This document shows, piece by piece, positions 1 through 20,136 of a stretch of 20,241 nt of DNA. The notes below the pieces were generated by a model. The model saw nothing but the letters and a program-made list of their open reading frames with translations, had not been told where the DNA came from and made no database searches. The DNA comes from Deinococcales bacterium. Its GTDB lineage: Bacteria; Deinococcota; Deinococci; Deinococcales; JAAFIG01. The stretch covers positions 1 through 20,241 of the forward strand of contig JAYWGM010000060.1 of NCBI GenBank assembly GCA_043778225.1, in the 5' to 3' direction. The position numbers and the translations under genes are program-made. Every line of letters starts with the position of its first letter. Within the stretch, counting starts at the first letter, position 1.

Positions 1-86
1 TCTACTGCACTACTCGCCTTTTGGTAGTGCTGTTGGAGTTCTTCGGCGGTGTGTTGTAGCTCGAGTTTTATTTTTGCTCTACCCAT
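1..86 (-). CDS. 5' part of a CDS running off the window; N-terminus resembles IS630-type winged helix-turn-helix (transposase OrfA-like) proteins
   Basis: Manual translation from ATG at 86 gives MGRAKIKLELQHTAEELQQHYQKASSAV(E/D), matching the recalled 'hs.eEL.qrYr.a...vEr' start of IS630-associated HTH proteins. TAAAAT lies 6 nt upstream. Not in the ORF track. Confidence 0.5.
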   Translation of the reverse strand, partial: MGRAKIKLELQHTAEELQQHYQKASSAV

Positions 87-119
87 TAAACTATTTTAAT
101 AGATTATCCGAGTTTCTTA

Positions 120-971
120 TCATTTCAAAAAACTTGATGCAAACTCAAATCCATCTTTAGCATTGGTCTCGAGCCGACCCCATGCCAAATTTGGGTCGTG
201 CGGCGGACAAATAAGGGCTGCTTCTTCGTGCCAGACTGGAAATAATCTTTTTCGAGTCTCGAGTGTCGTGACTGGGTAAAGGTCGTAACCCATGATGTAC
301 GGGTAAGCCACATGGGCGCTGGTGGGCAGTAAATCGGCGGTGTAAATCAGCACTTGCCCATCCGACTCGAGCCGTACCGCACTCTGCCCAAGGTTATGCC
401 CCGGCACTGGCAAGAGGCTCAGTTCTGGGTAAATCTGAGCCATGCCATCGAAGGTGTCAAACAAATTTGCCTCGATAATCGGTTCAAAATTGTGGCTGTT
501 GTAGCTGGCGCGGTTGCGCTCATGGGTGTGGGTGGCATCGTGCAATTCTTGGCTCGAGACAATGTACCGCGCATTCTTAAAAGTTGGCTCGAGTAAGGGT
601 GTGGTGTTGCGCCCAGCGTGGTCAAAGTGTAAATGGGTATTAATGACTAAATCTATATCGTCTGGCTCGAGTCCGATTTCTCGTAGGCACGAAAAAATTG
701 TTTGGTCGCGGTCTACGGCAAAGATGGAGTCAAACTTTTCACCGCTTTTGTCATCCATGCCAGTTTCGACCAAGATATTTTTGCCGTGCAATTGGATTAA
801 AAGCGGATTGATTCGCAAGGTAATACGGTTTTTTTCGTCGGGTGGGCATTTTTTTTCCCATAGTACCCGTGGCACAGTGCCGAACATTGCGCCGCCATCC
901 AAGGCAAACTTGCCATCGGTCAGCGAATAGACATCGGCAATGCCAATTTTTTGATGTTTAACCCAAGTCAT
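120..971 (-). CDS. MBL-fold metallo-hydrolase, YtnP-like (putative lactonase)
   Basis: LDGGAMFGTVPRVLW, THLHFDHAG (HxHxDH), PGH, ADL.PT.AH and IMGYDLYP motifs. Confidence 0.9.
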   Translation of the reverse strand: MTWVKHQKIGIADVYSLTDGKFALDGGAMFGTVPRVLWEKKCPPDEKNRITLRINPLLIQLHGKNILVETGMDDKSGEKFDSIFAVDRDQTIFSCLREIGLEPDDIDLVINTHLHFDHAGRNTTPLLEPTFKNARYIVSSQELHDATHTHERNRASYNSHNFEPIIEANLFDTFDGMAQIYPELSLLPVPGHNLGQSAVRLESDGQVLIYTADLLPTSAHVAYPYIMGYDLYPVTTLETRKRLFPVWHEEAALICPPHDPNLAWGRLETNAKDGFEFASSFLK

Positions 972-1089
972 GGCAACAGCTTACCCTGTAACGACTTTTC
1001 AAGAAATGCTGACAAGGCTTGAGGCGCTTGGTAATGAGAAGTTTCTTGGCTAACAGTCAACGAAACTTCTTTGGGTGTTAAAATTCGCC

Positions 1090-2097
1090 ATGACAATCAA
1101 TGTGGCAATTCTAGGAGCAGGCAATATCGCAGCGACCCATTACCGAGGTTATGAAAAAGCAGCTGCAAAACTGGTGGGGTTTGTTGAAGTCAATCCCGAA
1201 ATGCGTGCCAAGCGAGAACTCGAGTGGTCAGCCCCCGGTTTTGGCTCGTTAGCAGCGCTACTCGAGACTGTCAAACCCGAGGCGGTGTCGGTGTGTACCC
1301 CCAATGCTTTTCATTTGCCGCTGACGCTCGAGGCAATTAAAAACGGTATCCATGTGCTGTGCGAAAAACCATTGTCGCTGAGTCTAGCCGAATGCCAAAC
1401 CATGATTGATGCAGCCCAGCAGGCGGCAGTGGTACTGCAAACAGGGCATCATTTGCGCTCGAATTGGTATGTCCAAAAAGCCAAACAGATTATTGAGAGC
1501 GGTGAACTCGGTCGGGTCACGTTTGTGCGTTTGCGTCAATCGCACGATTGGGGAGGCTCGGGGCGTGTACCCGAAACCTTTAGCACTTATGCCAAGGCTG
1601 GCGGCGGAACACTTTTAGACAATGGCTGTCATCTGATGGATTTGGCACGCTACTTAGCTGGCGATGTGCAAAGTATCTATGCCCAAATTGCTACCTTGGC
1701 GTATCCTGTCGAAGTCGAAGACTTGGCTTTGGTACACCTCGAGTTTAGCAGTGGTGCGCTTGGTAGTGTCGAGAATTCTTGGTCAAGTGTTGGTTTTGAA
1801 GAGGGCTTTTGGATTTATGGTACGAAAGGCACACTCGAGTGCAATTTTGCAGGAGCGCAACCTCGCCAGTTACTGCACTATCACCGTGCCAGCCAACCTA
1901 GCGAATGGGGCGCACGCGACACCACAACCCATAAAGTCGGCAATGAAGGCGGGCATTTTGCCCAAGTGGCGGCTTTTTTGGAAAGCATTAAAAATAAAAC
2001 GCCAGCCATCTGCACAGGTGCAGATGGGCGCGAAAGTGTCCGCTTGGTTTTAGCGGCTTATCAGAGTGCCAAAGAAAAAAGGATGGTGGTGTTATAA
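1090..2097 (+). CDS. Gfo/Idh/MocA family oxidoreductase
   Basis: ILGAGNIA Rossmann motif, CTPNAFH, HVLCEKP and GGGTLLDNGCH. Start moved from GTG 1075 to ATG 1090 because TGt-TAAAAT (1079-1084) lies 5 nt upstream of it. Confidence 0.92.
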   Translation: MTINVAILGAGNIAATHYRGYEKAAAKLVGFVEVNPEMRAKRELEWSAPGFGSLAALLETVKPEAVSVCTPNAFHLPLTLEAIKNGIHVLCEKPLSLSLAECQTMIDAAQQAAVVLQTGHHLRSNWYVQKAKQIIESGELGRVTFVRLRQSHDWGGSGRVPETFSTYAKAGGGTLLDNGCHLMDLARYLAGDVQSIYAQIATLAYPVEVEDLALVHLEFSSGALGSVENSWSSVGFEEGFWIYGTKGTLECNFAGAQPRQLLHYHRASQPSEWGARDTTTHKVGNEGGHFAQVAAFLESIKNKTPAICTGADGRESVRLVLAAYQSAKEKRMVVL

Positions 2098-3074
2098 AAA
2101 TCCTGATTTTAGGCGGCACTGCCTTTCTTGGTGGGCATTTGGTCAAAGCAGCCTTAGAAAAAAACCACGAGCTGACCCTTTTTCACCGAGGCAATCGCAA
2201 CCCATTTCCAAAGCTCGAGAATATCCTTGGAAACCGCGAAACCGACCTTGGTATATTGGCTGGGCGCACTTGGGATGCCGTGATTGATACCAGTGCCTAT
2301 GTGCCAAGAATTGCAAAAATCAGCGCTCAAGCCTTGGGGGCAAGTGTTGGGCGCTATTGCTTTATCAGCACCATCAGCGTCTACCAAGACGTTACCAAAG
2401 CCCACGACGAAAACGCGCCAGTCGCCACCCTCGAGCAAGATACCGAAGAAGTCAATGGGGTCACTTATGGCGCATTAAAAGTCTTGTGCGAAAACGAAAT
2501 TACCCTCGAGTATGGCAATCGGGCTTTGCTGCTCCGTCCGGGCTTAATTGTTGGCGCACAAGACCCATCGGACAGATTTACTTATTGGGTAGACCGTGTG
2601 GCAAAAGGTGGAACGGTGCTTGCACCGGGTCATCCAAATACGGGGGTGCAATTTATAGACGCACTCTCGTTGGCACGGTTTACAATTCACGCCCTCGAGC
2701 AAAATTTAAGTGGCACATACAACCTCAATGGGCAAGCGACCTCAATGCAGCAAGTTCTCGAGACCATCGGGCGCGTGGTTAGTTCGGATGCAAAGTTTGT
2801 TTGGGCAAACCAAGCCTTTCTCGAGCAGCACAAGGTCAATCCATGGATGGGCGCGGACAGCTTACCGCTTTGGATACCAGATTTAGATGCGACCACCGAT
2901 GGCACAAATACTGCGGCAGCCCTAAAAGCTGGACTCGAGTTTCGCAGCCTTGAAGAGACTGTGCAAGAAGTTTTTGAATGGTCGGCGACTCGAGAAAACC
3001 ACACTTGGCGCAGTGGCATCAGTCAAGAACGCGAAGCAGAACTTTTGGCGTGGCTCGAGAACCCAAGGGTATAA
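2094..3074 (+). CDS. NAD-dependent epimerase / isoflavone-reductase-like extended SDR; probable ATA start
   Basis: The frame upstream of the called TTG (2139) reads (I)KILILGGTAFLGGHLV, the Rossmann motif. Also WDAVIDTSAY, FISTISVY, YGALK (YxxxK), RPGLIVG and LPLW. Confidence 0.88.
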   Translation: MKILILGGTAFLGGHLVKAALEKNHELTLFHRGNRNPFPKLENILGNRETDLGILAGRTWDAVIDTSAYVPRIAKISAQALGASVGRYCFISTISVYQDVTKAHDENAPVATLEQDTEEVNGVTYGALKVLCENEITLEYGNRALLLRPGLIVGAQDPSDRFTYWVDRVAKGGTVLAPGHPNTGVQFIDALSLARFTIHALEQNLSGTYNLNGQATSMQQVLETIGRVVSSDAKFVWANQAFLEQHKVNPWMGADSLPLWIPDLDATTDGTNTAAALKAGLEFRSLEETVQEVFEWSATRENHTWRSGISQEREAELLAWLENPRV

Positions 3075-3078
3075 CAAT

Positions 3079-3103
3079 AAAAAACGCAGCCCCTTTTGGC
3101 TGC
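3079..3103 (-). terminator. Intrinsic terminator downstream of the K+ channel gene
   Basis: Minus strand reads GCAGCC-AAAAGG-GGCTGC followed by GTTTTTT. Confidence 0.6.
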
Positions 3104-3135
3104 TGATAGGTAAGAGTGTATCACCATATTCGATA

Positions 3136-3180
3136 TTCTTGACCTTAAAGCAGCACCTAACGGGCTTAGGTCGCTTCGTC
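3136..3180 (-). repeat. Copy A of a ~45-nt intergenic structured repeat
   Basis: Minus-strand gacgaagcgacctaagcccgttaggtgctgctttaaggtcaagaa matches 20188-20231 (+) at 36 of 45 aligned columns. Confidence 0.7.
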
Positions 3181-3184
3181 AAGT

Positions 3185-4162
3185 TTATGCACTTGAGCCG
3201 TCCAGTGCGGCATTTTTGACTGGCTCGTATTCATGAAGTTTTCTGACATCTATGGCAGCCCCGCCGTATTTATCTTGAATGTACATCTCCGAAAACTTGG
3301 CATTCCAAACAATTTCTTCGGCTTTGTACGAACCCCTTGCGTGGACTTTTTGAAACAAGACATCATCTAAGCCATGAATCACCACCAATAACTCGGCTTG
3401 GCTTTGGTCAAGGTCGGCTTCGTTCATGCCCCACAACGGACTTTCTGGCGTAATCGGATGCACCAGCGTCCATGCCATACTAAAAAAAGCCACTTTGGCA
3501 CGCTCGAGACGCAAATTATAAAAACGCCGCATTCTGCGCCCAGCTACCATTTCAAACCTTGAAAAATTGACTTGGGCTTCGATGTCGATAATTTCGTTAC
3601 GATAACCGTTGGTAATCCGAAACATCAGCCCTAAACCGTCTTGAAATGGCGACACCAGCGCGTTTTTGCTCCACAAAATTCTCGAGACTGGCTTAGAAAA
3701 CCTCGAGAACATCACGCCAGTAATCAAAGCCGCAATCAGTAGACCCAAGAAAGCCTCGATGCTCGAGACCACATGAGCCGCTACGCTGTTTGGCGAGATA
3801 TGCCCATAGCCAATCGTGGACAGCGTTTCGACACTAAAAAAGAAGCCACGCCAAAAGGTGTCTTTGACTTCGTTGGGTGTACCGGCATAGAGCGCATCTG
3901 GACCGCATAGCAGATAAATAAAGGCAAAAACCAGATTGATTAAAATAAAGACAACCGTGACGAGCGTAAAAAACATTGTCCACGACATCGAAACCAGTGC
4001 ATAAAATGGGCTGAGGCTCGAGAACCACCCCAAGCCCACCCGACGGGTATTAAAACTGCCATCTTTGTTGAGAAAGCGGGTGGACTGTTCGGCTTGAACC
4101 CGACCGATGCCAAGGTCATCTGGAATTGGTAGCTGGATTGGCGCTGATTCGGTTGGCGACAT
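3185..4162 (-). CDS. Inward-rectifier potassium channel (KirBac family)
   Basis: FFFSVETLSTIGYG pore/selectivity filter, two TM helices and a cytoplasmic Kir domain (LMFR, WTLVHPITPESPL). Start taken at the second Met (MSPTES) because TATAAT sits 7 nt upstream. Confidence 0.93.
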   Translation of the reverse strand: MSPTESAPIQLPIPDDLGIGRVQAEQSTRFLNKDGSFNTRRVGLGWFSSLSPFYALVSMSWTMFFTLVTVVFILINLVFAFIYLLCGPDALYAGTPNEVKDTFWRGFFFSVETLSTIGYGHISPNSVAAHVVSSIEAFLGLLIAALITGVMFSRFSKPVSRILWSKNALVSPFQDGLGLMFRITNGYRNEIIDIEAQVNFSRFEMVAGRRMRRFYNLRLERAKVAFFSMAWTLVHPITPESPLWGMNEADLDQSQAELLVVIHGLDDVLFQKVHARGSYKAEEIVWNAKFSEMYIQDKYGGAAIDVRKLHEYEPVKNAALDGSSA

Positions 4163-4205
4163 AGGCAGCATTATAAAGAGTAAAAGTCATTTTTTTCTAA
4201 AAAAC

Positions 4206-4445: not shown

Positions 4446-4464
4446 GGTGTAGGTAAGAATTAAA

Positions 4465-5559
4465 TTAGCGGCTCGGTTGCTCGAGTTGTGCCAGCACTGC
4501 CCCAGTTAAGCCATTGACCGCCACCACCCGTTGGTATTTTGCCCCGCCTGTCACGACGGTGCTGACAAATGGGCTGGTCAGGGCTTGGGTCACCAGTCTG
4601 TCGGGGGCTGGTTCGCTCAGGTTAAAGCGCAGGGTCAGGACACCGTTTTCGACTCGAGTTGAAGACAGGGCAACTCCGTACCCACCTGTTGGTTTTTGCC
4701 CTATAAAAAAGCTAATGGCACTGCTGCGTGTAAAGTCGAGGCTTGGGGCGCTGGGCAACGGAATTTGATTGCCATTGATGATTTGCCATGTCTGGGCAAA
4801 ACTCGAGTTGCTTGTGTCCCAACGCAATAAGGGTTGCGGGTTGTTGTAGGCTGCGTTCGAGCCATTTAGCAGCGAACGAACAGTCAGTGGTTCGGTGTTG
4901 GTAAAACCACCCAATAAATCTAGCGGTAAGCCGACTTGGACATACAGGGCGGTTAAATTTACACGGTCTGGGCGTGGCGTAAGATTGAGGTAAGCATCGG
5001 GGATGTTTGGATACTCGAGCAAGGCGACGGCAAGTGGCTGCTTAAATTTTTCTTGTAAATAACTTTGCAGTGCGTCAGATTCGGCGTTGTTCAGTTCGCC
5101 AACGCCGCGCAGACCCGCATTGCGTTCTTTTATCTCGAGTCGCAACTTAGAATCTTTGGAGAGTTCTTCGCGGCGACCGACATCAAACCATTTTTTACCG
5201 TCAAAGTAATACAGCGCTTGCACCGCATCTCGAGTTAAAACGCTCAGGTCAGCAGTCAATGGAATGGTTGCCACCGACAGCACTTCACGAATTGGCTTTG
5301 GGCGACTTTGTAAAGTTGCAGCACCATTAACGCTGAGTGAATTGGGAACTGCCAATGCGCCAATCAGGGCTGTGCCACTCAGGGTAATGGTGTTATTCTC
5401 GAGTTGTAGCGCCCGAGTTTGCCCCGCCTCGAGTTTGCCATAAAAAATCGTCTGGCGTTCTTGGATACCATACAAAACAATATCGGTGATGGTGTACTCC
5501 GAGGGCTGAAAAGCACAAGCCCCAAGTGCCAAAAGTAAAACGCCAAAAAGAATACGCAT
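4465..5559 (-). CDS. Lipoprotein with C-terminal PrcB (protease complex subunit) domain
   Basis: Signal peptide with lipobox LGAC; C-terminal GQKPTGGYGV...VTQALTSPF is typical of PrcB_C. Confidence 0.8.
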   Translation of the reverse strand: MRILFGVLLLALGACAFQPSEYTITDIVLYGIQERQTIFYGKLEAGQTRALQLENNTITLSGTALIGALAVPNSLSVNGAATLQSRPKPIREVLSVATIPLTADLSVLTRDAVQALYYFDGKKWFDVGRREELSKDSKLRLEIKERNAGLRGVGELNNAESDALQSYLQEKFKQPLAVALLEYPNIPDAYLNLTPRPDRVNLTALYVQVGLPLDLLGGFTNTEPLTVRSLLNGSNAAYNNPQPLLRWDTSNSSFAQTWQIINGNQIPLPSAPSLDFTRSSAISFFIGQKPTGGYGVALSSTRVENGVLTLRFNLSEPAPDRLVTQALTSPFVSTVVTGGAKYQRVVAVNGLTGAVLAQLEQPSR

Positions 5560-5668
5560 AAGGCTATCCTAAGGCTTGGTTGGGCTTTAAGTATGAACAA
5601 AAGCTCAAAATACCCTTAACGGTCTCGAGCAGGGAATCTAACTCATGAATTTGTATTATAATGAAACC

Positions 5669-5953
5669 ATGAAATCATCTGTAAAAACCATTGGTACAGG
5701 CGGGCAGATTTACTTAGGCAAAGAATTTGCTGGGCAACACGTCTTGGTGACACAAACCGAGACAGGTGTTTGGCAAATCAAAACCGCTGATGTGATTCCA
5801 CACAGTCAGCGGTTTTGGCATCAACCCGAAGTGGATAAACTGATGCAGCAGGCATTGGCTGAATCTGCTGGGCGGACGGCTCGAGCCAGCACAGAAGAAG
5901 AAATGGAAGAATTGTTCGCTCGTGCTTTGAAATATGCAGAAGAACGGACATGA
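5669..5953 (+). CDS. AbrB/MazE-like putative antitoxin
   Basis: VKTIGTGGQIYLGKEFAG swapped-hairpin-like N-terminus and acidic helical C-terminus. ATGA overlap with the next gene. Start at 5669 because TATAAT lies 6 nt upstream. Confidence 0.65.
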   Translation: MKSSVKTIGTGGQIYLGKEFAGQHVLVTQTETGVWQIKTADVIPHSQRFWHQPEVDKLMQQALAESAGRTARASTEEEMEELFARALKYAEERT

Positions 5954-6974: not shown

Positions 6975-6992
6975 GAATACACGCTCCGCGTC

Positions 6993-7988
6993 TCATGGGC
7001 GCACGGTGATGTCTTGAATATGCTGCCAGTCCGACCAGCCTTTGATGGGTAAAGTGACTTGGACTTGCCACGTTACTTTGTTGTCGGTGGCGCAAAAAGT
7101 CGTGGCTGCACCTTCGGGAATTGGTAGCTCGAGCGCAAACTCGAGTTTCTCGCCGCTTCGCAAGAAGCGCTTTTCAGAGACCAAAACTGGGTGCTGAAAG
7201 ATAGGGACAACATGAGTGCTGCGATTTGTGCCACTGCCAGTCGAATAGGTTTCGCTCTGCACCAGTTTGACTTCGATTTTCTCGAGTTCGAGGTCGGCTT
7301 TAACAATGGTTTCAAAGCGAACCTGAATACTTTGACTTGGCTGGATTTCTAAAGGTTCAATCTCGAGCTTGACCGCCCCGAGTTTGGCTTGGGCAAGGCT
7401 GTTGCGTAAAAGTGTATAGCCGATAAAAACAATCACACCGCCAAAAATCAAACCGACTGGAATAGCAATAAAAATCGGCACTTGCGACAAAATAAAAAAT
7501 AATCCAATCAAAAAAACAAAACAAAAACCAAGACCAACCTGCATTCCAATTTTAGAGCCAACCCCAACGATTTGCGCTCGAACCGTGGGCGCAAGATATG
7601 CTGGTCCAAAGTCCACACTTGCCATGCTTGGCAATGCGCCAAAAATAAAATCGGTTTCGGCTTTGGTTTTACCAAACATTCCGCCAGACTCGGCACGAAC
7701 ATACCAATCCAGATTAGTGTTTGTGCCTCGGTAAGTAAACGGACCATCGGGCATTTCAAAGTTAAATGGCACTTCGGTGATTCCAGCATTCCAGTTTTCG
7801 GCAATTGTGGTTTCGGCTCGAGAGCCATGGTCGCCACTGCCACGCCCATGCGCCCGCCACTCACGAATCAACTGGATTTTGCCGCGTCCACCGTCTGGGT
7901 CGTGAATGCTGACCACACCAAAAACCATATCGCCAGCCAAGTAGACCCCATCAGGGCGGTCAAGTCGAATCTCGAGCTTAAAACTCAT
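6993..7988 (-). CDS. Hypothetical membrane protein with two arrestin/SpoOM-like beta-sandwich segments flanking two TM helices
   Basis: The N-terminal 'LEIRLDRPDGVYLAGDMVFG...PFTYRG...DWYVRA' pattern recurs in the C-terminal half; a central hydrophobic hairpin separates them. Shares an ATGA overlap with the upstream gene. Confidence 0.6.
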   Translation of the reverse strand: MSFKLEIRLDRPDGVYLAGDMVFGVVSIHDPDGGRGKIQLIREWRAHGRGSGDHGSRAETTIAENWNAGITEVPFNFEMPDGPFTYRGTNTNLDWYVRAESGGMFGKTKAETDFIFGALPSMASVDFGPAYLAPTVRAQIVGVGSKIGMQVGLGFCFVFLIGLFFILSQVPIFIAIPVGLIFGGVIVFIGYTLLRNSLAQAKLGAVKLEIEPLEIQPSQSIQVRFETIVKADLELEKIEVKLVQSETYSTGSGTNRSTHVVPIFQHPVLVSEKRFLRSGEKLEFALELPIPEGAATTFCATDNKVTWQVQVTLPIKGWSDWQHIQDITVRP

Positions 7989-8581: not shown

Positions 8582-8587
8582 CTATTC

Positions 8588-8597: not shown

Positions 8598-8602
8598 AAG
8601 AC

Positions 8603-10300: not shown

Positions 10301-11068
10301 ATGATGCAACTCGAAACAGCCGTTCAAATAGCTGGGCATAGTCTGGTGGTATTGCAAAACACGACTCGAGACTCGAGTTTTCAGGAAAAAGCTGGAATCT
10401 GGTGGTATCAAACTCAAACCAACCTGAACGCCATGTTGACCAACACCGATTCTATGCCACTCGAAGTCAGCGCGGCGGCTCGAGCGTGGGGTCTGAAAAA
10501 ACAGTTGGTGATTCATCAGTTCTTAACTCCAGATTCGGATCAAATTGGCTTAATAGCCCGTTTTGCTGCGGCTGGTTTTGTTTTGACCAATCGTCATTAC
10601 CTCATGAACCAAGACTTAAAACTACAACTCGAGTTGCCTGTACCTTGGAGGGTTTTTTGCGCCGAAAATCAAAAACAAATTAAGCAAATCTCGAGCGCCG
10701 CCAAAGAAATTTTGTTGAATCTGGCTCAGTTGCCACCGTCGCCTTTGGGGGTGCGCTTGTACGCGGCTCAAGACTCGAGTCAAATTGTTGCTTGGGCGCG
10801 AGTTGCCCAATTACAGCCCGATACTGCTTGGTTGGACGATTTGTTTACGCGGGTGGCTTGGCGTAAACGCGGTGTGATGGCAAGTATTTTACAACGCATT
10901 GACCAAGATGCAATTACTTTTGGGGCGCACCAAATGCTGTTGTTTTCGGGGCAGCATAATCTCGAGTATCATCTTGGGCATGGGTATGAAAAAGTGGCAA
11001 TAAAATTGCGATTTGCTGCCCCACCAACTTGGTTTGAACGAATCAAAAATAAGTTCAAAGCAAGTTAA
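10301..11068 (+). CDS. GNAT family N-acetyltransferase
   Basis: C-terminal AWLDDLFTRVAWRKRGVMASIL (motif A) and LGHGYE; GGAG RBS upstream. Confidence 0.75.
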   Translation: MMQLETAVQIAGHSLVVLQNTTRDSSFQEKAGIWWYQTQTNLNAMLTNTDSMPLEVSAAARAWGLKKQLVIHQFLTPDSDQIGLIARFAAAGFVLTNRHYLMNQDLKLQLELPVPWRVFCAENQKQIKQISSAAKEILLNLAQLPPSPLGVRLYAAQDSSQIVAWARVAQLQPDTAWLDDLFTRVAWRKRGVMASILQRIDQDAITFGAHQMLLFSGQHNLEYHLGHGYEKVAIKLRFAAPPTWFERIKNKFKAS

Positions 11069-11484: not shown

Positions 11485-11522
11485 AAAATTACCTCTTAAA
11501 ATCTCGAGCCGTGAATCGTGGG

Positions 11523-12887
11523 TTATGGTTGAGCCACAACTAAACTCGGTTGGTGGTTTTTCTCGTGACTCGAGCCTCGCCAAACGCGCCAAACGATACT
11601 GGGTACGAATAAAGAACTTGGTGGTTTGACCATGTTGCCCACGCTATGAAATGCTACGGTCAAGATTGGGTCATGTGCTGCTACCGTCAGTAATTTTGCA
11701 ATGTAGGCATTGATCAAATTAACTTCTGGTCCTCGTTTACCAATGGTTTCGGCAAAAGCAAAATCTGCTCCTGCTGCCAGCATCCAAGCGGTATCTACAA
11801 CCCCAGCCGCTTGCTTAAAAAATCGTTTGCCAATGCCTTTGATTCCAAGGTTCAGAGCGGTACTCAGGGCTTGGGCTTCGAGACTGGCAACACTCATGCC
11901 TTGTCCAAAAATTGGATTAAAACTACACATCGCGTCGCCCAATACCAAGAAACCTTCTGGAAAGGATTTTAATTTTTCGTAATGCCGTCGTAAACTTGCA
12001 GGGAATTTGTACGGCACAATCTCCGAGAGTGGCTCGGCGTTTTTAAGTAAATTGTACAATTCAGGGGTTGGTAAACTGCGAGTAAACTCGAGAAAACCAG
12101 CTTGGTCAGTTGGCGGATGATCGCCGTGCATTCCAATCAGGGTCACTGCCCATTGGTCATTTTCCTGAGCTAAAATTACTGCACCACGCTTTTGATTTGG
12201 GGCTTTTGGTGCAATAACCATCAGGGCTTTACCGTTCAAATCAGAGCTTGAACGCCGAAAAGTACGGGTTGAATACGCCATATTGACTTTGACTTCGCTT
12301 ACTTGAGGCGCAACAAAACCCATCCGCTCGAGCCAAACTGGGCTTTGCGAACCACGACCACTGGCATCCACCACCAAATCCGCTTTGAATTGCTGTTTGA
12401 TGCTGTCCACTTCGTACTGCACACCAATAACTTGATTGGCTTTGATTAATAAACCCTTCACAGCCACATCAGTCAAAGCCACCACATTCTTTAAGCTCAG
12501 AACACGATTACGAACCACCGCCTCGAGATTCGGACGACTGATTGCCACACCATGCAAATCTGAAGTTGCTGCAGCTAAAAAAGCCCCATTTTGAAACCAA
12601 GCACCGTCCTTGGTGACATCCAACAAAAGCGCCCCAGCTTTGACCAATTCGGACTGCAAATCTGGGAATAACCTCAGCAAAACACGGTAGCCAGCACTGA
12701 GTAACCCATGCGGATGCTGACCTTGAGGCACGCCCTTACGCGGCAACGTATTTTCTGAGAAAACATCACGCTCGAGTAGTGTGACCCGCTCGAAACGCTC
12801 CGAAAGCACCCGAGCCGCCAACAAACCGCTCATGCTTGCCCCAATCACAATCGCGTGCTTAGCGATTTGGATATTATTTTGATTCAT
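11523..12887 (-). CDS. FAD-dependent monooxygenase/oxidoreductase
   Basis: AIVIGASMSGL, RKGVPQGQH.H, LVVDASGRGS and LGDAMCSFNPIFGQGMS. Start MNQNN at 12887 with an AGAGGTGG RBS. Confidence 0.9.
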   Translation of the reverse strand: MNQNNIQIAKHAIVIGASMSGLLAARVLSERFERVTLLERDVFSENTLPRKGVPQGQHPHGLLSAGYRVLLRLFPDLQSELVKAGALLLDVTKDGAWFQNGAFLAAATSDLHGVAISRPNLEAVVRNRVLSLKNVVALTDVAVKGLLIKANQVIGVQYEVDSIKQQFKADLVVDASGRGSQSPVWLERMGFVAPQVSEVKVNMAYSTRTFRRSSSDLNGKALMVIAPKAPNQKRGAVILAQENDQWAVTLIGMHGDHPPTDQAGFLEFTRSLPTPELYNLLKNAEPLSEIVPYKFPASLRRHYEKLKSFPEGFLVLGDAMCSFNPIFGQGMSVASLEAQALSTALNLGIKGIGKRFFKQAAGVVDTAWMLAAGADFAFAETIGKRGPEVNLINAYIAKLLTVAAHDPILTVAFHSVGNMVKPPSSLFVPSIVWRVWRGSSHEKNHQPSLVVAQP

Positions 12888-12961
12888 AAAACCACCTCTT
12901 GTATCTCGAGGACGAAAAAACATGGAACTCGAAACACCTATTCATTTCTTTGACTTAACTA

Positions 12962-13168: not shown

Positions 13169-13187
13169 GTCATCCCTTCTAATTCAC

Positions 13188-13310: not shown

Positions 13311-13373
13311 AATGCTCCTCTTGAAACAACCCCAGAACTTGATGGCTCGAGGGGGAAAATTGCGAATACTCAG

Positions 13374-15851
13374 TTATTTTTTGAGTAAGACACTGATTGA
13401 ATTTGAACTGCTGTTACCTGTGATAAAATCAAGTTTGCCATCGGCGTTAACATCGCCTGTGCTGACAACCCGAGCATTTTCACTGGGGCTATAATCGGTC
13501 TTGGCAGCAAAACTACCCGTACCCGTACCGAGCAGTACACTGGCGCTACCAGTAACCGAGCTAAAGTTGGCAGTAATTACATCGAGTTTGTTATCGCCGT
13601 TGAAATCGCCAATTTTAATGTCTATTGGGTTTGTACCAGCTATAAAATCGGTTTTTGGATTGAGACTGCCATAACCCGTGCCTAACAGTAAACTGATGGT
13701 ACTTGAACCTTGATTGACCACGGCTAAATCGAGTTTGCCATCGGTGTTAAAATCTCCAGCCGCTAAGCCTTTGGGACTCGAGCCAACAGGGAAATCGGTT
13801 TTTGTATCGAACGTTCCAATGCCAGTACCAAGCAATAAACTGATGGTATCTGCACTGCTATTGGCTACGGCAACATCGAGTTTTCCATCGCCGTTAAAAT
13901 CGCCCAGTGTGACATCTCGAGGGCTTGTACCAACCAGATAATCGGTTTTGGCTGTAAATACACCAAAGGCATTGCCGAGCAGCAGACTGATGGTATTTGC
14001 ACTATTATTAACGACCACCAAGTCAAGCGCACCATCGCCGTTCAAATCGCCATTGCTGATGGCGACAGCCCCAGCACCTACCGCATAATCGGTTTTGTTT
14101 GGAAATAAACCTAAACCATTTCCGAGCAGCAGACTGATGGTATTTGGATTCTGATTGACCACGGCAATATCAAGGTTGCCGTCGGCATTAAAATCCCCTG
14201 TGGTTAATGCACCCGGGTTTGCCCCTGTACTCGAGTTGAGGGGCGCTGAAAATCCTCCCCCGCCAGTGTTGAGTAAGGCATTGACTTGATTGCCTCCAGG
14301 ATTTGTGACCACCACATCCAAATGACCATCGCTGTTAAAATCGCCTGTGGTTAAACCAATTGGCGTACCAACCGTGGCTGTACTGACTTTAGAATTAAAA
14401 CCAGTCACAGCTTCTGGGCTACTGGCGATCCGAAAGCGGTAGACAATTGGTTTTAGGGCAGCATTATCCAAAGTTCGAGTTAAAAATTGAGTCAGGCTGA
14501 CTTCAACTTCTTCACCGCGCCTAAAATTGGTCGTAGGCGTATACACAAGACCATCACCAGGAAACGGGGTACTGTAATCGCCGTTGCTACTCGAGCGCCG
14601 CCCTGTTTCAGCACTGTTAATCACAAAGTTAGAACTTGTCGCATCAAACATTAGATCGCAAGTATTGGCTTGTACCACGGTATTGGCAGCTACAAACATA
14701 CTGTTTGGAATCGGTAAAACACTGGTCACACCGGGTTGATTACTAAAAAAATCTTGAGCCAATGTCGGTGTGACGGTGGCAGTTTCGACTCGGCAGAGCA
14801 GATCGCGTTGCACACCTGTACCAGTTGGGTTTGGGTAGCCAAAAATTCCACTGCTCGGCAAGGTACGGATATACCGTTTTCCACCAATTCCGGGCAATAC
14901 ATTTAAGTTCAGCACTTGCTCGAGTGAAGTTTGAGCGGCAATACTTTGTTCTTCTTGACTTTGCGAAGTGGCAGATGCAATGTCGTCGGCAACCACGAAC
15001 ACAAAACTAAAGGTAAATGGATTTTGACTGCGAATTGGTTTACGTGGCAACTTAAAAGCAAAGGTGACACGTCCCTTGAAGCAACTCGAGTTGTTGGTCA
15101 CAAAGGTGTAACCGTTTGGTGGGCTGGTCAGGGTACTCGAGCAATTGGCACTGGTTGGTGTCATACCAATGGTTCGTGCAGTGCCAGAAGTTGGTACACT
15201 CCGAGCCGTGTACCCATACTCGAGGACTTGCAGTGCTGGGTATGTGGTATTCAAAGCTACTTGCACCACATCGGTTTCGGCTTCGCTGTAAAGCTGCATA
15301 TCCGCCGCTTCTGGTTCGATTTCAACACCGTTACTGATACTCGAGCGCATACCATGCGTGGGTTTGATGGCACGGTAGGTCAATTCGCCCGTGGGTACAG
15401 TATCGGTGGCTGGGATAACCACATCTGCGCCATCTTTTAAGCTCGAGAACATTGTGCCAAGTTGAGTATTTAAGCTGGTAGCCACAAAGTTGAGGTTCTT
15501 AAAGCTGGTGGCACTAAAATTTGCAATATCAAAAGTGGCTCGGACATAGCGGGTTTTTGTGCCAAAGGTTTCGTTGGCATCTATAAACCCAACACTGTTG
15601 CGTTTAATGGCAATTTGCGAGGTGGTGTTGCCATTGGCAGTTAAGCTCTGGGTTTGCAACTTGCTCGAGACAAACGGCTTAAAGTTGCTGCGGCTGGTTG
15701 GATTTAATTCATCGCTAAAATCCAGTGTCACCTCGAGTAAACCAAGGGTTTTAACAGGGCTTGGAATGGAAGGTGGTTTTTCTATTCTGGTACTACCACA
15801 ACCAATCGTGGCAACAAGTAGTAAGGTAAATCCGAGGAACTGACGCATCAT
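13374..15851 (-). CDS. Lipoprotein with unknown N-terminal domain, Ig-like (Big_5-like) domain and seven FG-GAP/VCBS repeats
   Basis: Lipobox TIGC and AAGGAG RBS; seven GD(F/L/V)NxD(G/N)xLD motifs at ~49-aa period. Confidence 0.9.
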   Translation of the reverse strand: MMRQFLGFTLLLVATIGCGSTRIEKPPSIPSPVKTLGLLEVTLDFSDELNPTSRSNFKPFVSSKLQTQSLTANGNTTSQIAIKRNSVGFIDANETFGTKTRYVRATFDIANFSATSFKNLNFVATSLNTQLGTMFSSLKDGADVVIPATDTVPTGELTYRAIKPTHGMRSSISNGVEIEPEAADMQLYSEAETDVVQVALNTTYPALQVLEYGYTARSVPTSGTARTIGMTPTSANCSSTLTSPPNGYTFVTNNSSCFKGRVTFAFKLPRKPIRSQNPFTFSFVFVVADDIASATSQSQEEQSIAAQTSLEQVLNLNVLPGIGGKRYIRTLPSSGIFGYPNPTGTGVQRDLLCRVETATVTPTLAQDFFSNQPGVTSVLPIPNSMFVAANTVVQANTCDLMFDATSSNFVINSAETGRRSSSNGDYSTPFPGDGLVYTPTTNFRRGEEVEVSLTQFLTRTLDNAALKPIVYRFRIASSPEAVTGFNSKVSTATVGTPIGLTTGDFNSDGHLDVVVTNPGGNQVNALLNTGGGGFSAPLNSSTGANPGALTTGDFNADGNLDIAVVNQNPNTISLLLGNGLGLFPNKTDYAVGAGAVAISNGDLNGDGALDLVVVNNSANTISLLLGNAFGVFTAKTDYLVGTSPRDVTLGDFNGDGKLDVAVANSSADTISLLLGTGIGTFDTKTDFPVGSSPKGLAAGDFNTDGKLDLAVVNQGSSTISLLLGTGYGSLNPKTDFIAGTNPIDIKIGDFNGDNKLDVITANFSSVTGSASVLLGTGTGSFAAKTDYSPSENARVVSTGDVNADGKLDFITGNSSSNSISVLLKK
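13377..14400 (-). repeat. Intragenic ~147-bp tandem repeats encoding FG-GAP blades
   Basis: aatcggtt blocks at 13644, 13791, 13938 and 14085 (147-bp period); identical 25-mers at 13975-13999 and 14122-14146. Confidence 0.85.
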
Positions 15852-15878
15852 TTGTTCTCCTTTGAACGAACTGTTCGT

Positions 15879-15914
15879 AGCTTAGAATTGCTGCCGTAGC
15901 CTGAGCGTAGCCTG
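15879..15914 (-). promoter_or_regulatory. SARP/AfsR-type activator site and -10 element of the lipoprotein operon
   Basis: Minus strand reads CAGGCTACG-CT-CAGGCTACG-(10 nt)-TAAGCT: a perfect 9-mer direct repeat at 11-bp period. Confidence 0.7.
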
Positions 15915-15976
15915 TGTCGTTTGATTCGTCAGGCTCGAGAAAAGCAGCAAAACACAAACTGTGTCATGATGGTCTG

Positions 15977-18900
15977 GTGAATTCCGTTGCGCCCACTGAA
16001 ACGCAAACAGAATTAGAATTTCGCTTCTTTGGTGAACCCGAATTTTTTCTAGACAAACAAGAATTGCACCTGCCGATTCGTAAACTGATGGCTTTAATGG
16101 CGTATTTAGCTGTGGAAGGTTCTGGCTCGAGGTCAAAATTAGCCGGTTTACTCTGGTCGGAACTGGACGAAACCAGTGCCAGACGAAATTTACGCCAGCG
16201 CTTGTACCGCCTCAGCCCACCTGAATTAACGGCGTGCTTGCAAATCGAGAGCGATAAAATTTCTTTGGGTGTCGTCTCGAGCGATGTCCAAGATTTTACC
16301 AAAGCCATACAGCACAACAATTTTTTGACAGCCGTCAGACTCTACAAAGGTGTCTTTTTAGAAGGGCTTGAACTCGAGGATGCCAGTGCTTTTCACGATT
16401 GGTTGGATACCAAGCGCAACACTTTCGCACGGCAGTACCAACACGCCCTCGCCGAACTAGCCAACCAACTCGAGGCAGACGGACATTTTCTCGAGGCACT
16501 GCAACAGCATTTGTTGCTGATTGCCATCAACCCACTGCTTGAACTGCACCAGCGCCAGATTATGCGGCTGCATTTGCAACTGCGCCAACCCGCCGAAGGG
16601 TTGGCGGTCTTTGAGCGCTTTAGGGATTTACTGGGACTAGAACTTGGGCTAGAACCCACCCCAGAAACGCTGCTGCTTGCCAGCCAAATGCGCCAACAAG
16701 AAACGCAACTCGAGTCGGTGGTGGTGCAAAAAAGCATTCGTGGCTTTGTCTCGCGCACCCCAATGATTGGACGGGCTGGCATTTGGCAGCAATTAGAAAA
16801 GGCTTGGCAAGCTGGGCAAATGGTTTTTATCGGCGGCGAACCTGGCATGGGCAAAAGCCGTTTACTCGAGGAATTTGCGACCACCAGACCAACCCTAACT
16901 ACACTAGGGCGAATCGGCGACAGCAGCCTACCGTTTGCCACCCAAACCCGAGCGATTCGCGGTTTACTCGAATTAAACCCGCAACTAAGCCCGCCGGCTT
17001 GGATTCGTCAAGAACTCTCGAGGCTGATACCAGCCCTGCACGATACCGCACCTGAAGACCGTCCAGAATCGCGTTTACGATTATTTGATGCCTTTACCGA
17101 ACTGCTCTGGATGACCACCCAGAGTATTGACACGCATTTAATTGACGACCTCCAATTTTTTGATTCCGATAGTTTTGAAATGCTGCTGCACAGTTTCTCG
17201 AGGTTTCTCGAGCGCCCCAACCAAAAACGCCAAATTCTGGCTTTTCGGCATGGCGAATTAAGCCCAGCCATGCAGCACAGCCTTGACCAGATGATTCAAA
17301 GCGGCACCGCCACACTGTTGCAACTCGAGCCGCTCGATAACTTAGCTGTTCAGCACTTGGTGCAGCACTTATTCGGGGCAAATGTTGATTTATCTAATAA
17401 ATTGTACCGTGCCACGGGCGGCAATCCGTTCTTTGCGCTCGAGACCCTAAAAACACTGGTTGAATCGGATGCGCTGCAACAAAATACAGTCGGAAGGTGG
17501 GATGCCACCAATGCCGACCTCCCGATGCCGCACAGTGTCATGGCAGTGGTACGCGAACGGGTGGCGCGGCTTGGTTCAGAAGCCACACGCTTGCTCGAGA
17601 CCGCCAGTTTAGCGGGCGATACCTTTGCGCTCGAGGATATTCAAAACGCCACCACCCTGACCGAATTTCAAGCGCTAGAAGCCTTTGAAAAAGCCTTGGC
17701 ATTGCAACTGCTCGAGCAGCAAGCAGGTGGCTACCGATTTAGTCATGATTTGGTGCGAGAATCCATTGCTTCTGGACTTGGCACAGAACGACGGCGCTTA
17801 CTGCATAAAAAACTCGCGGTGAATCTCGAGCAGCGCGGTGGGGCAGCTACGCGCATCGCATGGCATCTCGAGCAGTCTGGGCAAGCTGTTCAAGCGGTGG
17901 GTTGGCGTATCAAAGCCGCCGAAGAAGCGGGGCGAGTCTACGCGCATCAAGAAGCGATCAATCATTACAAGATGGCTTTACAAGATGGAGCAGATGCTGC
18001 CCAAGCCTTTAAGATTCATCTTGTCTGCCTTGATTTATTTGGTTATTTGCACAATGCACAAGGTGAAATGGCAACCCTAAGCAACTTAGAAACGCTGGCT
18101 CTGGCTGACCCGCAACTGAGCGCAATCGTTGCCACAAAACAAGCCGATGTTGCTTATAAAACGGGTCGTTATCTGGATTGCCTCAAAGCTGGGCAGCGCG
18201 TGTTGGACACCAAAAATGTTAGTCTTAGCCTACAACTCGAAGGGCAGTACCACCGTGGTATGGCACTCGAGAAACTTGGACGAAGCCAAGAAGCCCAAGT
18301 TGTCTATCTGTTAGCCTTTGAACAATTAGTGTCTATGCCCGCAAAAAAGCAAATTGGTCTTTGTGTGCAACTCTGTTATTTATCGGTACAAAACAGCGAT
18401 TTTGTGGCAGCCGCCAACTTCCTAAAAAGTGCTTTTGAACTTTGCGAAACCCAGAACAGTCTACGGGGACGATCCCTTTGCTACAATGCCAGTGCGCGGC
18501 TGGCATTATCTCAAGGAAAGCGCCCAGAAGCCATCAAGGAACTTGAACTCGCCCTCAAAGACGCTCGAGCGATTTTTGATAGACGCTTACAGGAGAGTTT
18601 TTTATTCAACTGTATTCGTATTCATGTCGAAGCAGGCGAACTTGACATTGCCCAAAATAAACTCGAGGAAGTGATTAATTTACTACCAGAACCCTACGAA
18701 CCTCTGGCTGAAAGTAATTTACTGACCCGACTCGCCGAAATTCAAATGCTCAGAGGCAACCTTGCTGCCAGCCTCGAGTCTTATCGTAAAGCAGTACAAA
18801 TTGGAGCTTTGCTTGGTCAGTCACAAAATCATGTTTGGCAAGTGGTTGGTTTGTCGCGTTTACATTCACAAATTGGCGATTTGGCTGGCGCTCGCAGCGT

Positions 18901-19456
18901 TATGGAACAATTGCTTAAAGCCGCCAAAGAAGGTACTTACAACGACCATATTCTGGTACAAGCCCAACTGGCTGGCTGCGAATACGCCGAAGGTCAACTC
19001 GAGACGGCTAGGCAGCGCCTGACCCAGATTTTACAAACCAAACAAACCGATTACCGCGAAAACCGACACCATGCCATGTATCAACTTGGGATGGTCGAAT
19101 TGGCACGTCATCAGCCACAAAAAGCCTTAGCTGCCATTGCCCAAATAGACCATTCCAGCACAATCTTTGCTTGTGCCATGAGTATTCGCTTAAAGGCAAA
19201 CAGCGCCCTTGGCAACAAATTAGACAGCCAAGCCGCCGAAGCACTCTTAGCCAACACCAGCCTACCACCCTTGCAAAAACTCGAGTTATATGTTTCGTTG
19301 GCTAGGACATTAGCTAAAACCAGTGATTCCAAAGAAGCGGCTGTGTTTCAAGAACTTGCGAGTACGCAACGACTCGAGTTAGCAAGCAGTTTAATTTCGT
19401 ATCCAGATTTGCAAAGAACTTTCCTCGAGAAGCACAGTAACCCGCAACTCGAGTGA
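15977..19456 (+). CDS. AfsR-like SARP-family transcriptional regulator (wHTH + BTAD + AAA/STAND ATPase + TPR)
   Basis: KLMALMAYLAV..SRSKLAGLLW..ARRNLRQ wHTH; BTAD (LYKGVFLEGL..WL..R, LGLEPTPET); Walker A GEPGMGKS; IDDLQ; TGGNPFF; TPR-like tail. The ORF is open from GTG 15914, but GTG 15977 is preferred (TGt-CATGAT 6 nt upstream). The start is uncertain. Confidence 0.9.
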   Translation: MNSVAPTETQTELEFRFFGEPEFFLDKQELHLPIRKLMALMAYLAVEGSGSRSKLAGLLWSELDETSARRNLRQRLYRLSPPELTACLQIESDKISLGVVSSDVQDFTKAIQHNNFLTAVRLYKGVFLEGLELEDASAFHDWLDTKRNTFARQYQHALAELANQLEADGHFLEALQQHLLLIAINPLLELHQRQIMRLHLQLRQPAEGLAVFERFRDLLGLELGLEPTPETLLLASQMRQQETQLESVVVQKSIRGFVSRTPMIGRAGIWQQLEKAWQAGQMVFIGGEPGMGKSRLLEEFATTRPTLTTLGRIGDSSLPFATQTRAIRGLLELNPQLSPPAWIRQELSRLIPALHDTAPEDRPESRLRLFDAFTELLWMTTQSIDTHLIDDLQFFDSDSFEMLLHSFSRFLERPNQKRQILAFRHGELSPAMQHSLDQMIQSGTATLLQLEPLDNLAVQHLVQHLFGANVDLSNKLYRATGGNPFFALETLKTLVESDALQQNTVGRWDATNADLPMPHSVMAVVRERVARLGSEATRLLETASLAGDTFALEDIQNATTLTEFQALEAFEKALALQLLEQQAGGYRFSHDLVRESIASGLGTERRRLLHKKLAVNLEQRGGAATRIAWHLEQSGQAVQAVGWRIKAAEEAGRVYAHQEAINHYKMALQDGADAAQAFKIHLVCLDLFGYLHNAQGEMATLSNLETLALADPQLSAIVATKQADVAYKTGRYLDCLKAGQRVLDTKNVSLSLQLEGQYHRGMALEKLGRSQEAQVVYLLAFEQLVSMPAKKQIGLCVQLCYLSVQNSDFVAAANFLKSAFELCETQNSLRGRSLCYNASARLALSQGKRPEAIKELELALKDARAIFDRRLQESFLFNCIRIHVEAGELDIAQNKLEEVINLLPEPYEPLAESNLLTRLAEIQMLRGNLAASLESYRKAVQIGALLGQSQNHVWQVVGLSRLHSQIGDLAGARSVMEQLLKAAKEGTYNDHILVQAQLAGCEYAEGQLETARQRLTQILQTKQTDYRENRHHAMYQLGMVELARHQPQKALAAIAQIDHSSTIFACAMSIRLKANSALGNKLDSQAAEALLANTSLPPLQKLELYVSLARTLAKTSDSKEAAVFQELASTQRLELASSLISYPDLQRTFLEKHSNPQLE

Positions 19457-19478
19457 GTACAGTAACCCGCAACTCGAG
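19424..19478 (+). repeat. Tandem duplication delimited by three CTCGAG sites
   Basis: acagtaacccgcaactcgag is present at 19434-19453 and 19459-19478. Confidence 0.9.
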
Positions 19479-19635
19479 AATCCGTGCTTCCTCTATCTAA
19501 AGTCGTAGTCGTGCCGTTCACATTTTTCACGGCTACCTCACGCGGCTGGTTTCTCTCATGATACCTTGACTCACGTTAAGCCACCCTCGGGCAGGCGATT
19601 ACAGCCACCCTCAAATACTCGAGGGAAATAAAAGG

Positions 19636-20136
19636 ATGGATATTATGTTGAAAAAATTACTGCCGATTGCCACCGCTATTGCCCTGACCGCCGCTTTTAC
19701 CGTGCCAATGGCACAAACCAAAGCCACCCGTATTGGTTTTGTTAATGCCCAAGTTGTTTTACAAAATCACCCACAAGGCGCTAAAGTTCTCGAGGCTCAG
19801 AAAAAAGCCCAAACCGAACTCAAAGAACTTTCGGATAAAATCCAAGTGCTGCAGACCAAAATTACCAATGGCACAGCTACGGCTGCCGAGAAACAACAGT
19901 ATGAAACCTTGGTAAAAACCGGTCAGGCACGTTCAGCCCAACTCAAAACCCAAATTGATAAGCTGCTCGAGCCAATCACCAAACAAGTGGATACAGCCGT
20001 TGCTAAAGTTGCTAAAGCTCAGGGTTTTGTGCTGGTCATGGATAAAGCCATTGCTGCTCAGTCTGGTTTGGTGATTTATGCTGACCCAGAAGGCACAGAC
20101 CTTTCGGACGAAGTAATTAAAGAAGTTAAAAAGTAA
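19636..20136 (+). CDS. skp: OmpH/Skp periplasmic outer-membrane chaperone
   Basis: Signal peptide, RIGFVN, long coiled coil, VAKAQGFVLVMDK and IYADP..DLSDEVIK. The alternative start ATG 19645 has better AAGGA spacing. Confidence 0.88.
   Translation: MDIMLKKLLPIATAIALTAAFTVPMAQTKATRIGFVNAQVVLQNHPQGAKVLEAQKKAQTELKELSDKIQVLQTKITNGTATAAEKQQYETLVKTGQARSAQLKTQIDKLLEPITKQVDTAVAKVAKAQGFVLVMDKAIAAQSGLVIYADPEGTDLSDEVIKEVKK

Follow-up and report, generated by a model that had tools for sequence, protein, structure and literature searches.

The 20,241-nucleotide stretch of DNA analysed here (hereafter the window) is contig C60 of G000, a genome of a Deinococcales bacterium which comprises 4,029,277 bases in 107 contigs (the longest of 139 kb) and is 89% complete, with a GC content of 48.7%. 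The subject of this work is the palindromic hexamer CTCGAG, exactly 132 copies of which are dispersed across 17 open reading frames (ORFs) on both strands and across the spacers of the window, the first at 60-65 and the last at 19966-19971, i.e. approximately one per 153 bp. A preliminary description of this DNA had arrived at about 132 by manual counting, and the figure is confirmed. In 100 dinucleotide-preserving shuffles of the window the mean was 2.62 copies and the maximum 8. The source had also been taken for a non-cyanobacterial genome, and rightly so: it belongs to the Deinococcota, and the nearest named protein records are those of 'Deinococcales bacterium' metagenome-assembled genomes (MAGs). 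For the TatD protein, the closest named record is 'MAG: Deinococcales bacterium' (83% identity), followed by Trueperaceae and Deinococcus (~50%).

CTCGAG occurs in all three coding phases of the window, as had been claimed for it: 79 copies lie in the phase CTC|GAG, and 15 and 28 in the other two, against 8.5, 2.2 and 2.9, respectively, after a synonymous-codon shuffle within each gene, which holds every protein and the per-gene codon usage constant. The dominant phase, in which the word encodes Leu-Glu, is exemplified by the copy at 17438..17443 (plus strand) inside a BTAD/AAA/TPR regulator gene, which reads GCG CTC GAG ACC. Ten sites are located outside ORFs of at least 100 amino acids (aa). 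Six sites had been described as intergenic; four of them (5624, 13346, 19473 and 19618) indeed lie outside every ORF of this length, whereas those at 11503 and 12905 fall within the first ~30 and ~6 codons, respectively, of the longest ORFs and are intergenic only if the true starts lie further in. The site at 5624..5629 separates the divergent ORFs 4465-5559 (minus strand) and 5645-5953 (plus strand), and that at 13346..13351 lies between the ORFs 11523-12923 and 13374-15851 (both minus strand). The copy at 19473..19478 is placed directly past the stop codon of the ORF 15914-19456 (plus strand) and is the third of three copies at a spacing of 24-25 bp (19424, 19448, 19473), while that at 19618..19623 is situated 13 bp upstream of an OmpH-like ORF (19636-20136, plus strand). 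At 10365..10377 the word forms the doublet CTCGAGnCTCGAG, whose spacing of 7 is the shortest found in the genome.

Abundance and sequence specificity of CTCGAG

In G000 as a whole, CTCGAG is the commonest hexamer, with 24,877 copies (one per 162 bp), i.e. 26.7 times the zero-order expectation of 931, which served as the null for the genome. The hexamers ranked directly below overlap with it, and among unrelated words the highest observed/expected ratio (O/E) is 4.9, for CAAAAA. The site is found on every one of the 98 contigs of 5 kb or more, at densities of 4.0-10.6 per kb. Confinement to one contig and equal enrichment of other hexamers, both of which the preliminary description had considered, are thereby ruled out. 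The word accounts for 68% of all TCGA tetramers of the genome. The excess is also present in contigs of two samples holding DNA of the window; none of the 8 variant positions found in these low-depth contigs falls in CTCGAG, where only 0.3 would be expected.

The abundance does not follow from coding. Genes were called crudely, as 3,412 ORFs of 100 aa or more that do not overlap, the longest taken first; the density within them is 6.17 per kb, and in the remaining 504 kb it is 6.18 per kb. The coding copies are distributed over the three phases as 12,805 (CTC|GAG), 4,383 and 4,560, each of which is 8-14 times the synonymous-shuffle null. In total, 21,763 sites were observed in coding sequences, compared with 2,299-2,367 after the synonymous shuffle (a ~9-fold difference) and ~1,040 after a codon-order shuffle, and both nulls are conservative because the preserved codon usage already holds the motif. 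The enrichment therefore survives the amino-acid-preserving null under which, according to the preliminary description, it might have vanished. The HIP1-like behaviour proposed there (HIP, highly iterated palindrome) is likewise borne out, as the word keeps to no particular frame or strand and reaches the same density in non-coding DNA.

The influence of the word extends to the proteins. Of the 18,516 Leu-Glu pairs encoded in G000, 12,812 (69%) are written CTCGAG, while outside Leu-Glu pairs CTC makes up 9% of the Leu codons and GAG 23% of the Glu codons; GAA constitutes 77% of the Glu codons not preceded by Leu, in agreement with the earlier remark that Glu is mostly GAA. Leu-Glu is the most over-represented dipeptide (O/E 2.33, compared with 0.97 for Glu-Leu), and its excess is 2.17 and 2.77 in two other CTCGAG-rich genomes, G141 and G140, and 1.33 in their relative G142 (see below). 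The CTCGAG excess has thus reshaped the proteome, i.e. the bias is strong enough to override proteins.

The nine classes of words that differ from CTCGAG at one position have O/E values of 0.15-1.41, against 26.7 for the exact word, which implies that recognition is close to all-or-none. Under a dinucleotide null, outer-position variants (NTCGAG) are uniformly and mildly raised (1.5-1.6), whichever base is present, inner transitions likewise reach 1.4-1.6, with low values (0.4-0.8) for inner transversions. C-to-T decay has left nearly equal numbers of products from the two cytosines (2,762 and 2,696), so there is no sign of a single hypermutable 5-methylcytosine (m5C). No flank consensus was detected in the ten bases on each side (base frequencies 0.17-0.31). 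A dispersed repeat element, of the repetitive extragenic palindrome (REP) or miniature inverted-repeat transposable element (MITE) kind, was rejected, as there is no conserved sequence beyond the core word.

The spacing of the sites is Poisson-like, with a mean of 161 and a coefficient of variation (CV) of 1.00, and the codon period of 3 bp is the only one seen within 600 bp. Pairs at distance 6 never occur, because they would create the avoided word GAGCTC (see below); there are 123 pairs at distance 7, a small peak, and 30-53 at each of the distances 8-11. The longest site-free gaps extend up to 5.6 kb and are mostly low-GC islands, the seven longest having 31-39% GC. Imported DNA lacks CTCGAG.

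Several other features of the window deserve mention. The ORF 3185-4171 (minus strand) encodes an inward-rectifier-type K+ channel protein (IRK_C, Ion_trans_2) and the ORF 6993-7988 (minus strand) an arrestin-like protein with weak Arrestin_N and Arrestin_C matches, domains which in both cases are better known from eukaryotes; the ORF 11065-11592 (minus strand) has a globin domain. The spacer between the ORFs 2139-3074 and 3185-4171 contains, at 3136-3177, a recurrent element of ~40 bp, of which ~15 partial copies (23-43 bp, 88-100% identity) are found on 11 other G000 contigs, four of them arranged head to tail at C51:61141-61307. It is present at ~93% identity in many genomes of the family, and the contigs of both samples branch at 3136-3177. 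It seems to belong to a small family of dispersed or tandem repeats.

Carriers, turnover of sites and loss of other palindromes

Words were counted in 364 Deinococcota genomes (the tallies include the unpublished G324, on which no claim is based), and the genomes compared in detail are MAGs of 57-94% completeness. In f1, the family of the window, which consists of five genera and is entirely of MAG grade, all 19 genomes carry 4.3-6.8 CTCGAG per kb. A second extreme lineage was found in genus g17 of family f3, where G140, the densest carrier (58% complete), has 8.6 and G141 7.0 per kb, as opposed to 0.3 in their congener G142. Nothing is unusual about 100 kb sampled from the latter (GC 50.7%, CTCGAG O/E 1.4). 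In seven of ten protein pairs, G141 is closer to G142 (58-83% identity) than to G000 (32-48%), and the remaining three look like paralogues. The trait therefore switches between close relatives. In another genus of f3, g7, presumably Deinococcus, the 111 genomes contain 26-1,372 copies each.

The excess is milder in four genomes sampled from three further families. The O/E is 10.7 in G022 (160-kb sample), 7.1 in G262 (100 kb), 5.0 in G013 (80 kb) and 8.7 in G019 (60 kb), with non-coding excesses of 7-, 10-, 9- and 5-fold, respectively, and CTCGAG is the top hexamer in each of them under a zero-order or a Markov-2 expectation. Their out-of-frame phases exceed the synonymous null 3.5-23 times, in crude gene calls in which high-GC shadow ORFs may inflate the counts. 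Across the Deinococcota the tendency is thus patchy and graded, with the extreme lineages at its far end.

The sites are retained more often than other words. In window-to-relative alignments, which have ~75% DNA identity within the genus, 122 of 226 aligned site pairs are conserved (54%), compared with 23% of 28,693 control 6-mers; across the other genera of the family, the proportions are 25 of 44 sites (57%) and 13% of the controls. For in-frame sites, Leu-Glu is conserved in 158 of 201 cases, and in 119 of these 158 (75%) all six bases are identical, as against 2,380 of 6,992 control codon pairs with conserved residues (34%); among other Leu-Glu codings the six bases are identical in 15 of 24.

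The sites also turn over. An orthologous alignment of G141 and G142 (6.6 kb, 70.5% identity) contains 33 sites in G141 and one in G142. At the 33 sites of G141, G142 differs by 2.6 bases on average, compared with ~1.7 for control 6-mers, and it mostly has other Leu-Glu codings two or three changes away, e.g. TTAGAA, CTGGAA or TTGGAG. An alignment of G140 with G142 gave 11 sites and none, respectively. In genus g17 the change may have been either a gain or a loss. An imported-looking methylase gene with 38% GC, common to G000, G001 and G003, carries 10-13 sites per species; of its 17 site positions, 6 are occupied in all three, 4 in G000 only and 7 in the other branch only, and some of the differences alter the protein. 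Imported genes of any function fill rapidly with CTCGAG. A genome-wide process creating and retaining the site, which had been postulated from the window, must exist, given the excess over the synonymous shuffle, the conservation above controls, the contrast between G141 and G142 and the filling of the imported gene.

Many other palindromes are nearly missing. In G000, 34 of the 64 palindromic hexamers have an O/E below 0.1 (e.g. 3 copies of GGCGCC, 1 of GACGTC, 13 of CTGCAG and 24 of GAGCTC), and GGCC (131 copies) and GATC (O/E 0.13) are almost absent. The paradox pointed out beforehand, namely that a restriction-type site should be enriched, becomes sharper with this purge. A general anti-palindrome mechanism was rejected: only 43 of 2,016 non-palindromic hexamer classes are depleted to this degree (O/E below 0.1), 31 of these contain purged 4-mers, and the rest fit degenerate type II sites such as GRCGYC, GGNNCC and GDGCHC. 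Such a pattern, among the most extreme purges of restriction sites conceivable, is the mark that very heavy exposure to type II restriction leaves behind.

The same ~30 palindromes are represented by 0-1 copies in 85 kb of G141 (~20 expected) and in 26 kb of G140, are low in 61 kb of G009 and are normal in G142. The Spearman correlation of the palindrome spectrum with that of G000 is 0.59 for G141, 0.42 for G009 and 0.15 for G142. Phylum-wide counts of GAGCTC, CTGCAG and GACGTC agree, being 0-25, 8-91 and 0-232, respectively, in most f1 genomes, 2, 38 and 111 in G140, 30, 46 and 10 in G141, and 384, 634 and 543 in G142. However, G022, G262, G013 and G019 have their 5-11-fold CTCGAG excess without a general purge, which weakens the idea of an obligatory link between purge and excess and leaves the association resting on two lineages.

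Search for a driver

G000 contains ~24 DNA methyltransferase genes in five Pfam families, whose models give no specificity. None of them tracks the trait (the search covered these five families; MT-A70 and like families were not searched), and the orphan CTCGAG/TCGA methyltransferase co-occurring with the enrichment, the search for which had been recommended in the preliminary description, was looked for and not found. Specificities are not evident from the sequence, and unrelated enzymes could share one.

Four candidates were considered and rejected. The HTH+Eco57I+TaqI_C methylase encoded on C65 is present in 3 of 21 genomes, with full-length orthologues only in G001 and G003. A 1,341-aa Eco57I/TaqI_C enzyme on C93 has full-length orthologues in 2 of 29 other genomes, G009 and G141. 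D12 (Dam-like) methylases have a match in all 11 f1 genomes searched, yet they do not constitute a single orthologous group and are shared only pairwise. A small beta-class methylase with 66% identity between G009 and G141 is patchy: at an identity of at least 51% it occurs in 5 of 30 genomes (full-length in G009, G146, G148 and G141, broken in G013) and in none of the 7 genomes of the genus of the window. Only one methylase orthologue is common to G000, G009 and G141, and it is missing from many other trait-bearing genomes. In G142 a single marginal methylase match was obtained, and G140, the densest carrier, gave no match in any of the five families (58% complete). The density of CTCGAG within the methylase genes, tried as a filter for residence time, did not discriminate, as most have 3-7 sites per kb. 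Two beta-class methylase genes of G000, C80:32170-33096 and C40:9581-11011, look decayed, with internal stops; the region on C40 (31-32% GC, zero CTCGAG in 3.4 kb) is probably a recent import.

The XhoI nuclease family (PF04555), whose presence in 7 of 364 Deinococcota genomes served as a positive control for the search, was found neither in f1 (0/19) nor in f3 (0/125). The beta-class methylase adjoining this nuclease is 62-79% identical among the carriers and has no orthologue in G000 (best 24-30%) nor among the beta-class loci of G009 and G141 that were fetched. Intact convergent cassettes of XhoI nuclease and beta-class methylase were found at G156:C126, G157:C417, G015:C1:71001-80000 and G159:C8:32001-41000; these genomes belong to one genus of another Deinococcota family and still carry 1,400-3,900 CTCGAG. 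A Chi-type signal was rejected, as no PF12705 RecB/AddAB-type nuclease domain was detected in G000, G007, G009 or G010 and a palindrome cannot be strand-skewed. So was a loss of DNA uptake by G142: ComEC is intact in G142, and is present in 20 of the 22 genomes searched.

Several methylase genes are 54-67% identical between G000 and G141, compared with 32-48% for core proteins, a likeness which suggests gene flow. A three-gene cluster at G000:C44:34633-37144 has a counterpart on G141:C157 which is a second copy in G141; this copy has 58-62% identity to the f1 version versus 49-51% to that of G142, and the other copy in G141 is G142-like. The second copy could reflect gene flow between trait-bearing lineages, or be an old paralogue.

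Possible explanations and comparison with known systems

CTCGAG in these genomes is a real case of a hyper-abundant iterated palindrome of the HIP type, and a bias toward it exists, is blind to context, works site by site and varies between close relatives. Equal density in genes and spacers, independent placement, an all-or-none advantage of the exact word, filled imports, tolerated amino-acid changes and a trait-free relative together point to a blind fixation bias acting per site. As its cause we rank first, tentatively, biased mismatch correction or gene conversion toward exact CTCGAG. A DNA-level fixation bias would act on each exact hexamer separately, regardless of the content encoded, as a 'molecular drive' rather than through cellular use of each site. 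Point mutations would bring a sequence within one step of CTCGAG, often from other codings of Leu-Glu; the step completing the word would be fixed preferentially and the step destroying it rejected, so that copies would build up to a mutation-drive balance of ~5-8 per kb. From the 26.7-fold O/E, we calculate that the scaled advantage would be roughly ln(26.7), i.e. ~3.3. The reader would be a protein with a restriction-enzyme-like, all-or-none specificity, in lineages with frequent recombination, and multiple genome copies, which are known for Deinococcus and Thermus, would help conversion.

Several points weigh against this explanation. No reader protein was found, so the repair or conversion step is inferred only, and no Vsr was detected in G000 (89% complete). 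With these data, biased conversion cannot be told apart from an uptake-linked drive or from weak selection per site, and conservation above background is equally expected under purifying selection. In addition, the genomes in the conservation test are related and hence its rows non-independent, and with crude ORF calls the 'non-coding' remainder takes in some missed genes.

A wider proposal, which is possible but which we hold with some doubt, is that a single switchable or mobile factor installs the ~25,000 CTCGAG copies as a genomic 'self word', with more than 30 other palindromes being purged; such a factor may have arisen or been lost within one genus (G140 and G141 versus G142) and may be weaker in several Deinococcota families. 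If this is true, CTCGAG would represent a second, independent and denser HIP system, and the contrast within one genus would let the driver of HIP, unknown for 30 years, be found by comparative genomics.

Methylation coupled to repair, as envisaged for HIP1 (Elhai, 2015), is an unlikely alternative to biased conversion. It would require a CTCGAG/TCGA methyltransferase acting on every site, together with methyl-dependent repair or strand discrimination, and the methylase gene may differ between genomes. CTCGAG is a classical type II site, XhoI-family nuclease and methylase cassettes exist in 7 of 364 genomes of the phylum, and G000 holds many methyltransferase genes (see above). Moreover, the raised outer-position variants resemble the outer-position bias described for HIP1 by Elhai (2015, PMC4390886), and the variant pattern resembles the off-target pattern of a haloarchaeal CTCGAG m5C methylase (PMC8112702). 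On the other hand, no cognate methylase was found in every carrier, in contrast to the key correlate of HIP according to Elhai (PMC4390886). The TaqI_C-type, 1,341-aa, D12 and beta-class enzymes are each restricted to some of the genomes, the XhoI-linked methylase lacks a G000 orthologue, and G140 (58% complete) reaches 8.6 per kb with no match in five methylase families. Neither the equal C-to-T decay, which lacks the sign of a hypermutable m5C, nor the lack of a detectable Vsr in G000 favours methylation. One conserved orphan methyltransferase, as reported for HIP1, is disfavoured as the driver.

Nor is it likely that CTCGAG is a signal for DNA uptake or transformation, comparable to the DNA uptake sequences (DUS) and uptake signal sequences (USS), whose alleles would be spread by homologous replacement while the same traffic through restriction barriers would purge palindromes. 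This would account for the fact that both extreme lineages, unlike their relative G142, are without the same ~30 palindromes, with agreeing phylum-wide counts and spectra, and it would fit the likeness of methylases suggestive of gene flow between G000 and G141. CTCGAG is blind to coding and rewrites proteins, as USS and DUS are known to do. However, the known uptake signals, at 9-12 nt and about one per kb, are longer, non-palindromic and sparser, and a 6-mer discriminates little. ComEC is intact in the trait-negative G142, so uptake genes do not separate the groups, no receptor was identified in the carriers, and a general purge is not seen in the four genomes whose excess is 5-11-fold. It should be added that a 2026 paper (PMC13756078) argues that HIP1 is itself an uptake sequence.

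A role of the individual sites in the cell, maintained by ordinary selection, is less likely still; each might, for example, be bound by a nucleoid or chromosome-architecture protein or serve as a mark of 'self'. The sites are 2-4 times more conserved than control 6-mers, synonymous positions included, and the same case is made for HIP1 by Xu et al. (2018, PMC5861425). In opposition to this, the Poisson-like spacing shows no phasing, genes and spacers do not differ in density, imports fill up whatever their function, and a close relative lives without the sites; a Chi-like use lacks the nuclease domain sought in four genomes (see above). Finally, explanations by codon or dipeptide usage, by base composition, by a mobile repeat and by faulty assembly are already refuted: 59% of the coding sites are in the Leu-Glu frame, and in high-GC relatives part of the count stems from the preference for CTC and GAG codons (frame 0), but ~21.8 thousand sites are observed against 2.3 thousand after the amino-acid-preserving shuffle, non-coding density equals coding density, the flanks are unconserved, and the word is present on 98 of 98 large contigs, in 19 of 19 genomes of the family and in the contigs of two samples.

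Whichever cause applies, the word distinguishes native from imported DNA in these genomes. It also skews codon and dipeptide statistics, with consequences for gene finding, binning and the inference of selection in these MAGs. In a full-text literature search (HIP, Meiothermus, Deinococcus methylome, Thermus palindromes), no published report of CTCGAG hyper-abundance was found.

Among the known systems, XhoI/PaeR7I restriction-modification has the same recognition word, and cassettes of the XhoI family are present in the phylum. Genomes normally avoid restriction sites, whereas CTCGAG is enriched 27-fold, and all 19 genomes of the family lack a detectable XhoI nuclease. Very short patch (VSP) repair by Dcm/Vsr is the textbook case of a repair that enriches a methylase site; its effects are far weaker, and, as stated above, no Vsr was found in G000. 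The DUS of Neisseria and the USS of Pasteurellaceae are, like CTCGAG, hyper-abundant, occur in genes and spacers, are thought to spread by a blind drive and can shape peptides, but they are longer, non-palindromic and ~6 times sparser, and here ComEC does not separate the CTCGAG carriers.

The closest likeness is to the HIPs of cyanobacteria. According to Elhai (2015, PMC4390886), HIP1 is GCGATCGC and the alternate HIPs are GGCGCC, GCsGC, rCCGGy, GGGATCCC and TCGATCGA; HIP1 and these five are all cyanobacterial, CTCGAG is not among them, and a cognate methylase is reported wherever a HIP occurs. As with HIP (PMC4390886 and PMC5861425), a short palindrome is the top oligomer, occurs in all frames and in non-coding DNA and does not arise from codon use; it is more conserved than control words and scarce in imported DNA, and the hosts are rich in restriction-modification genes, avoid other sites and differ in intensity between related lineages. 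Unlike HIP1, CTCGAG is a different word, found in Deinococcota, and is denser, with ~6,200 copies per Mb against 300-2,700 per Mb for HIP1 (table in PMC4390886). Its GC content (4/6, i.e. 67%) also differs from that of the alternate HIPs replacing HIP1, at least 75% in the same source, and no cognate methyltransferase was found in every CTCGAG carrier (five families searched; MAGs 57-94% complete). For HIP1, Xu et al. (2018, PMC5861425) describe selection-like conservation and a periodicity of 10-90 kb; the present data, from a G000 genome in 107 contigs, cover distances up to 600 bp and show a 3-bp period only.

The contrasts within the Deinococcota give this comparison its value, as they include a graded series from O/E 1.4 to 27, close relatives with and without the trait and what seems to be a lack of the conserved orphan methylase on which the leading model for HIP1 is built. 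To our knowledge, HIP1 has remained unexplained since the 1990s; its confinement to a single phylum, where it is almost ubiquitous, is part of the reason, as few contrasts are available. With this independent example in the Deinococcota, what makes a HIP becomes a testable comparative question.

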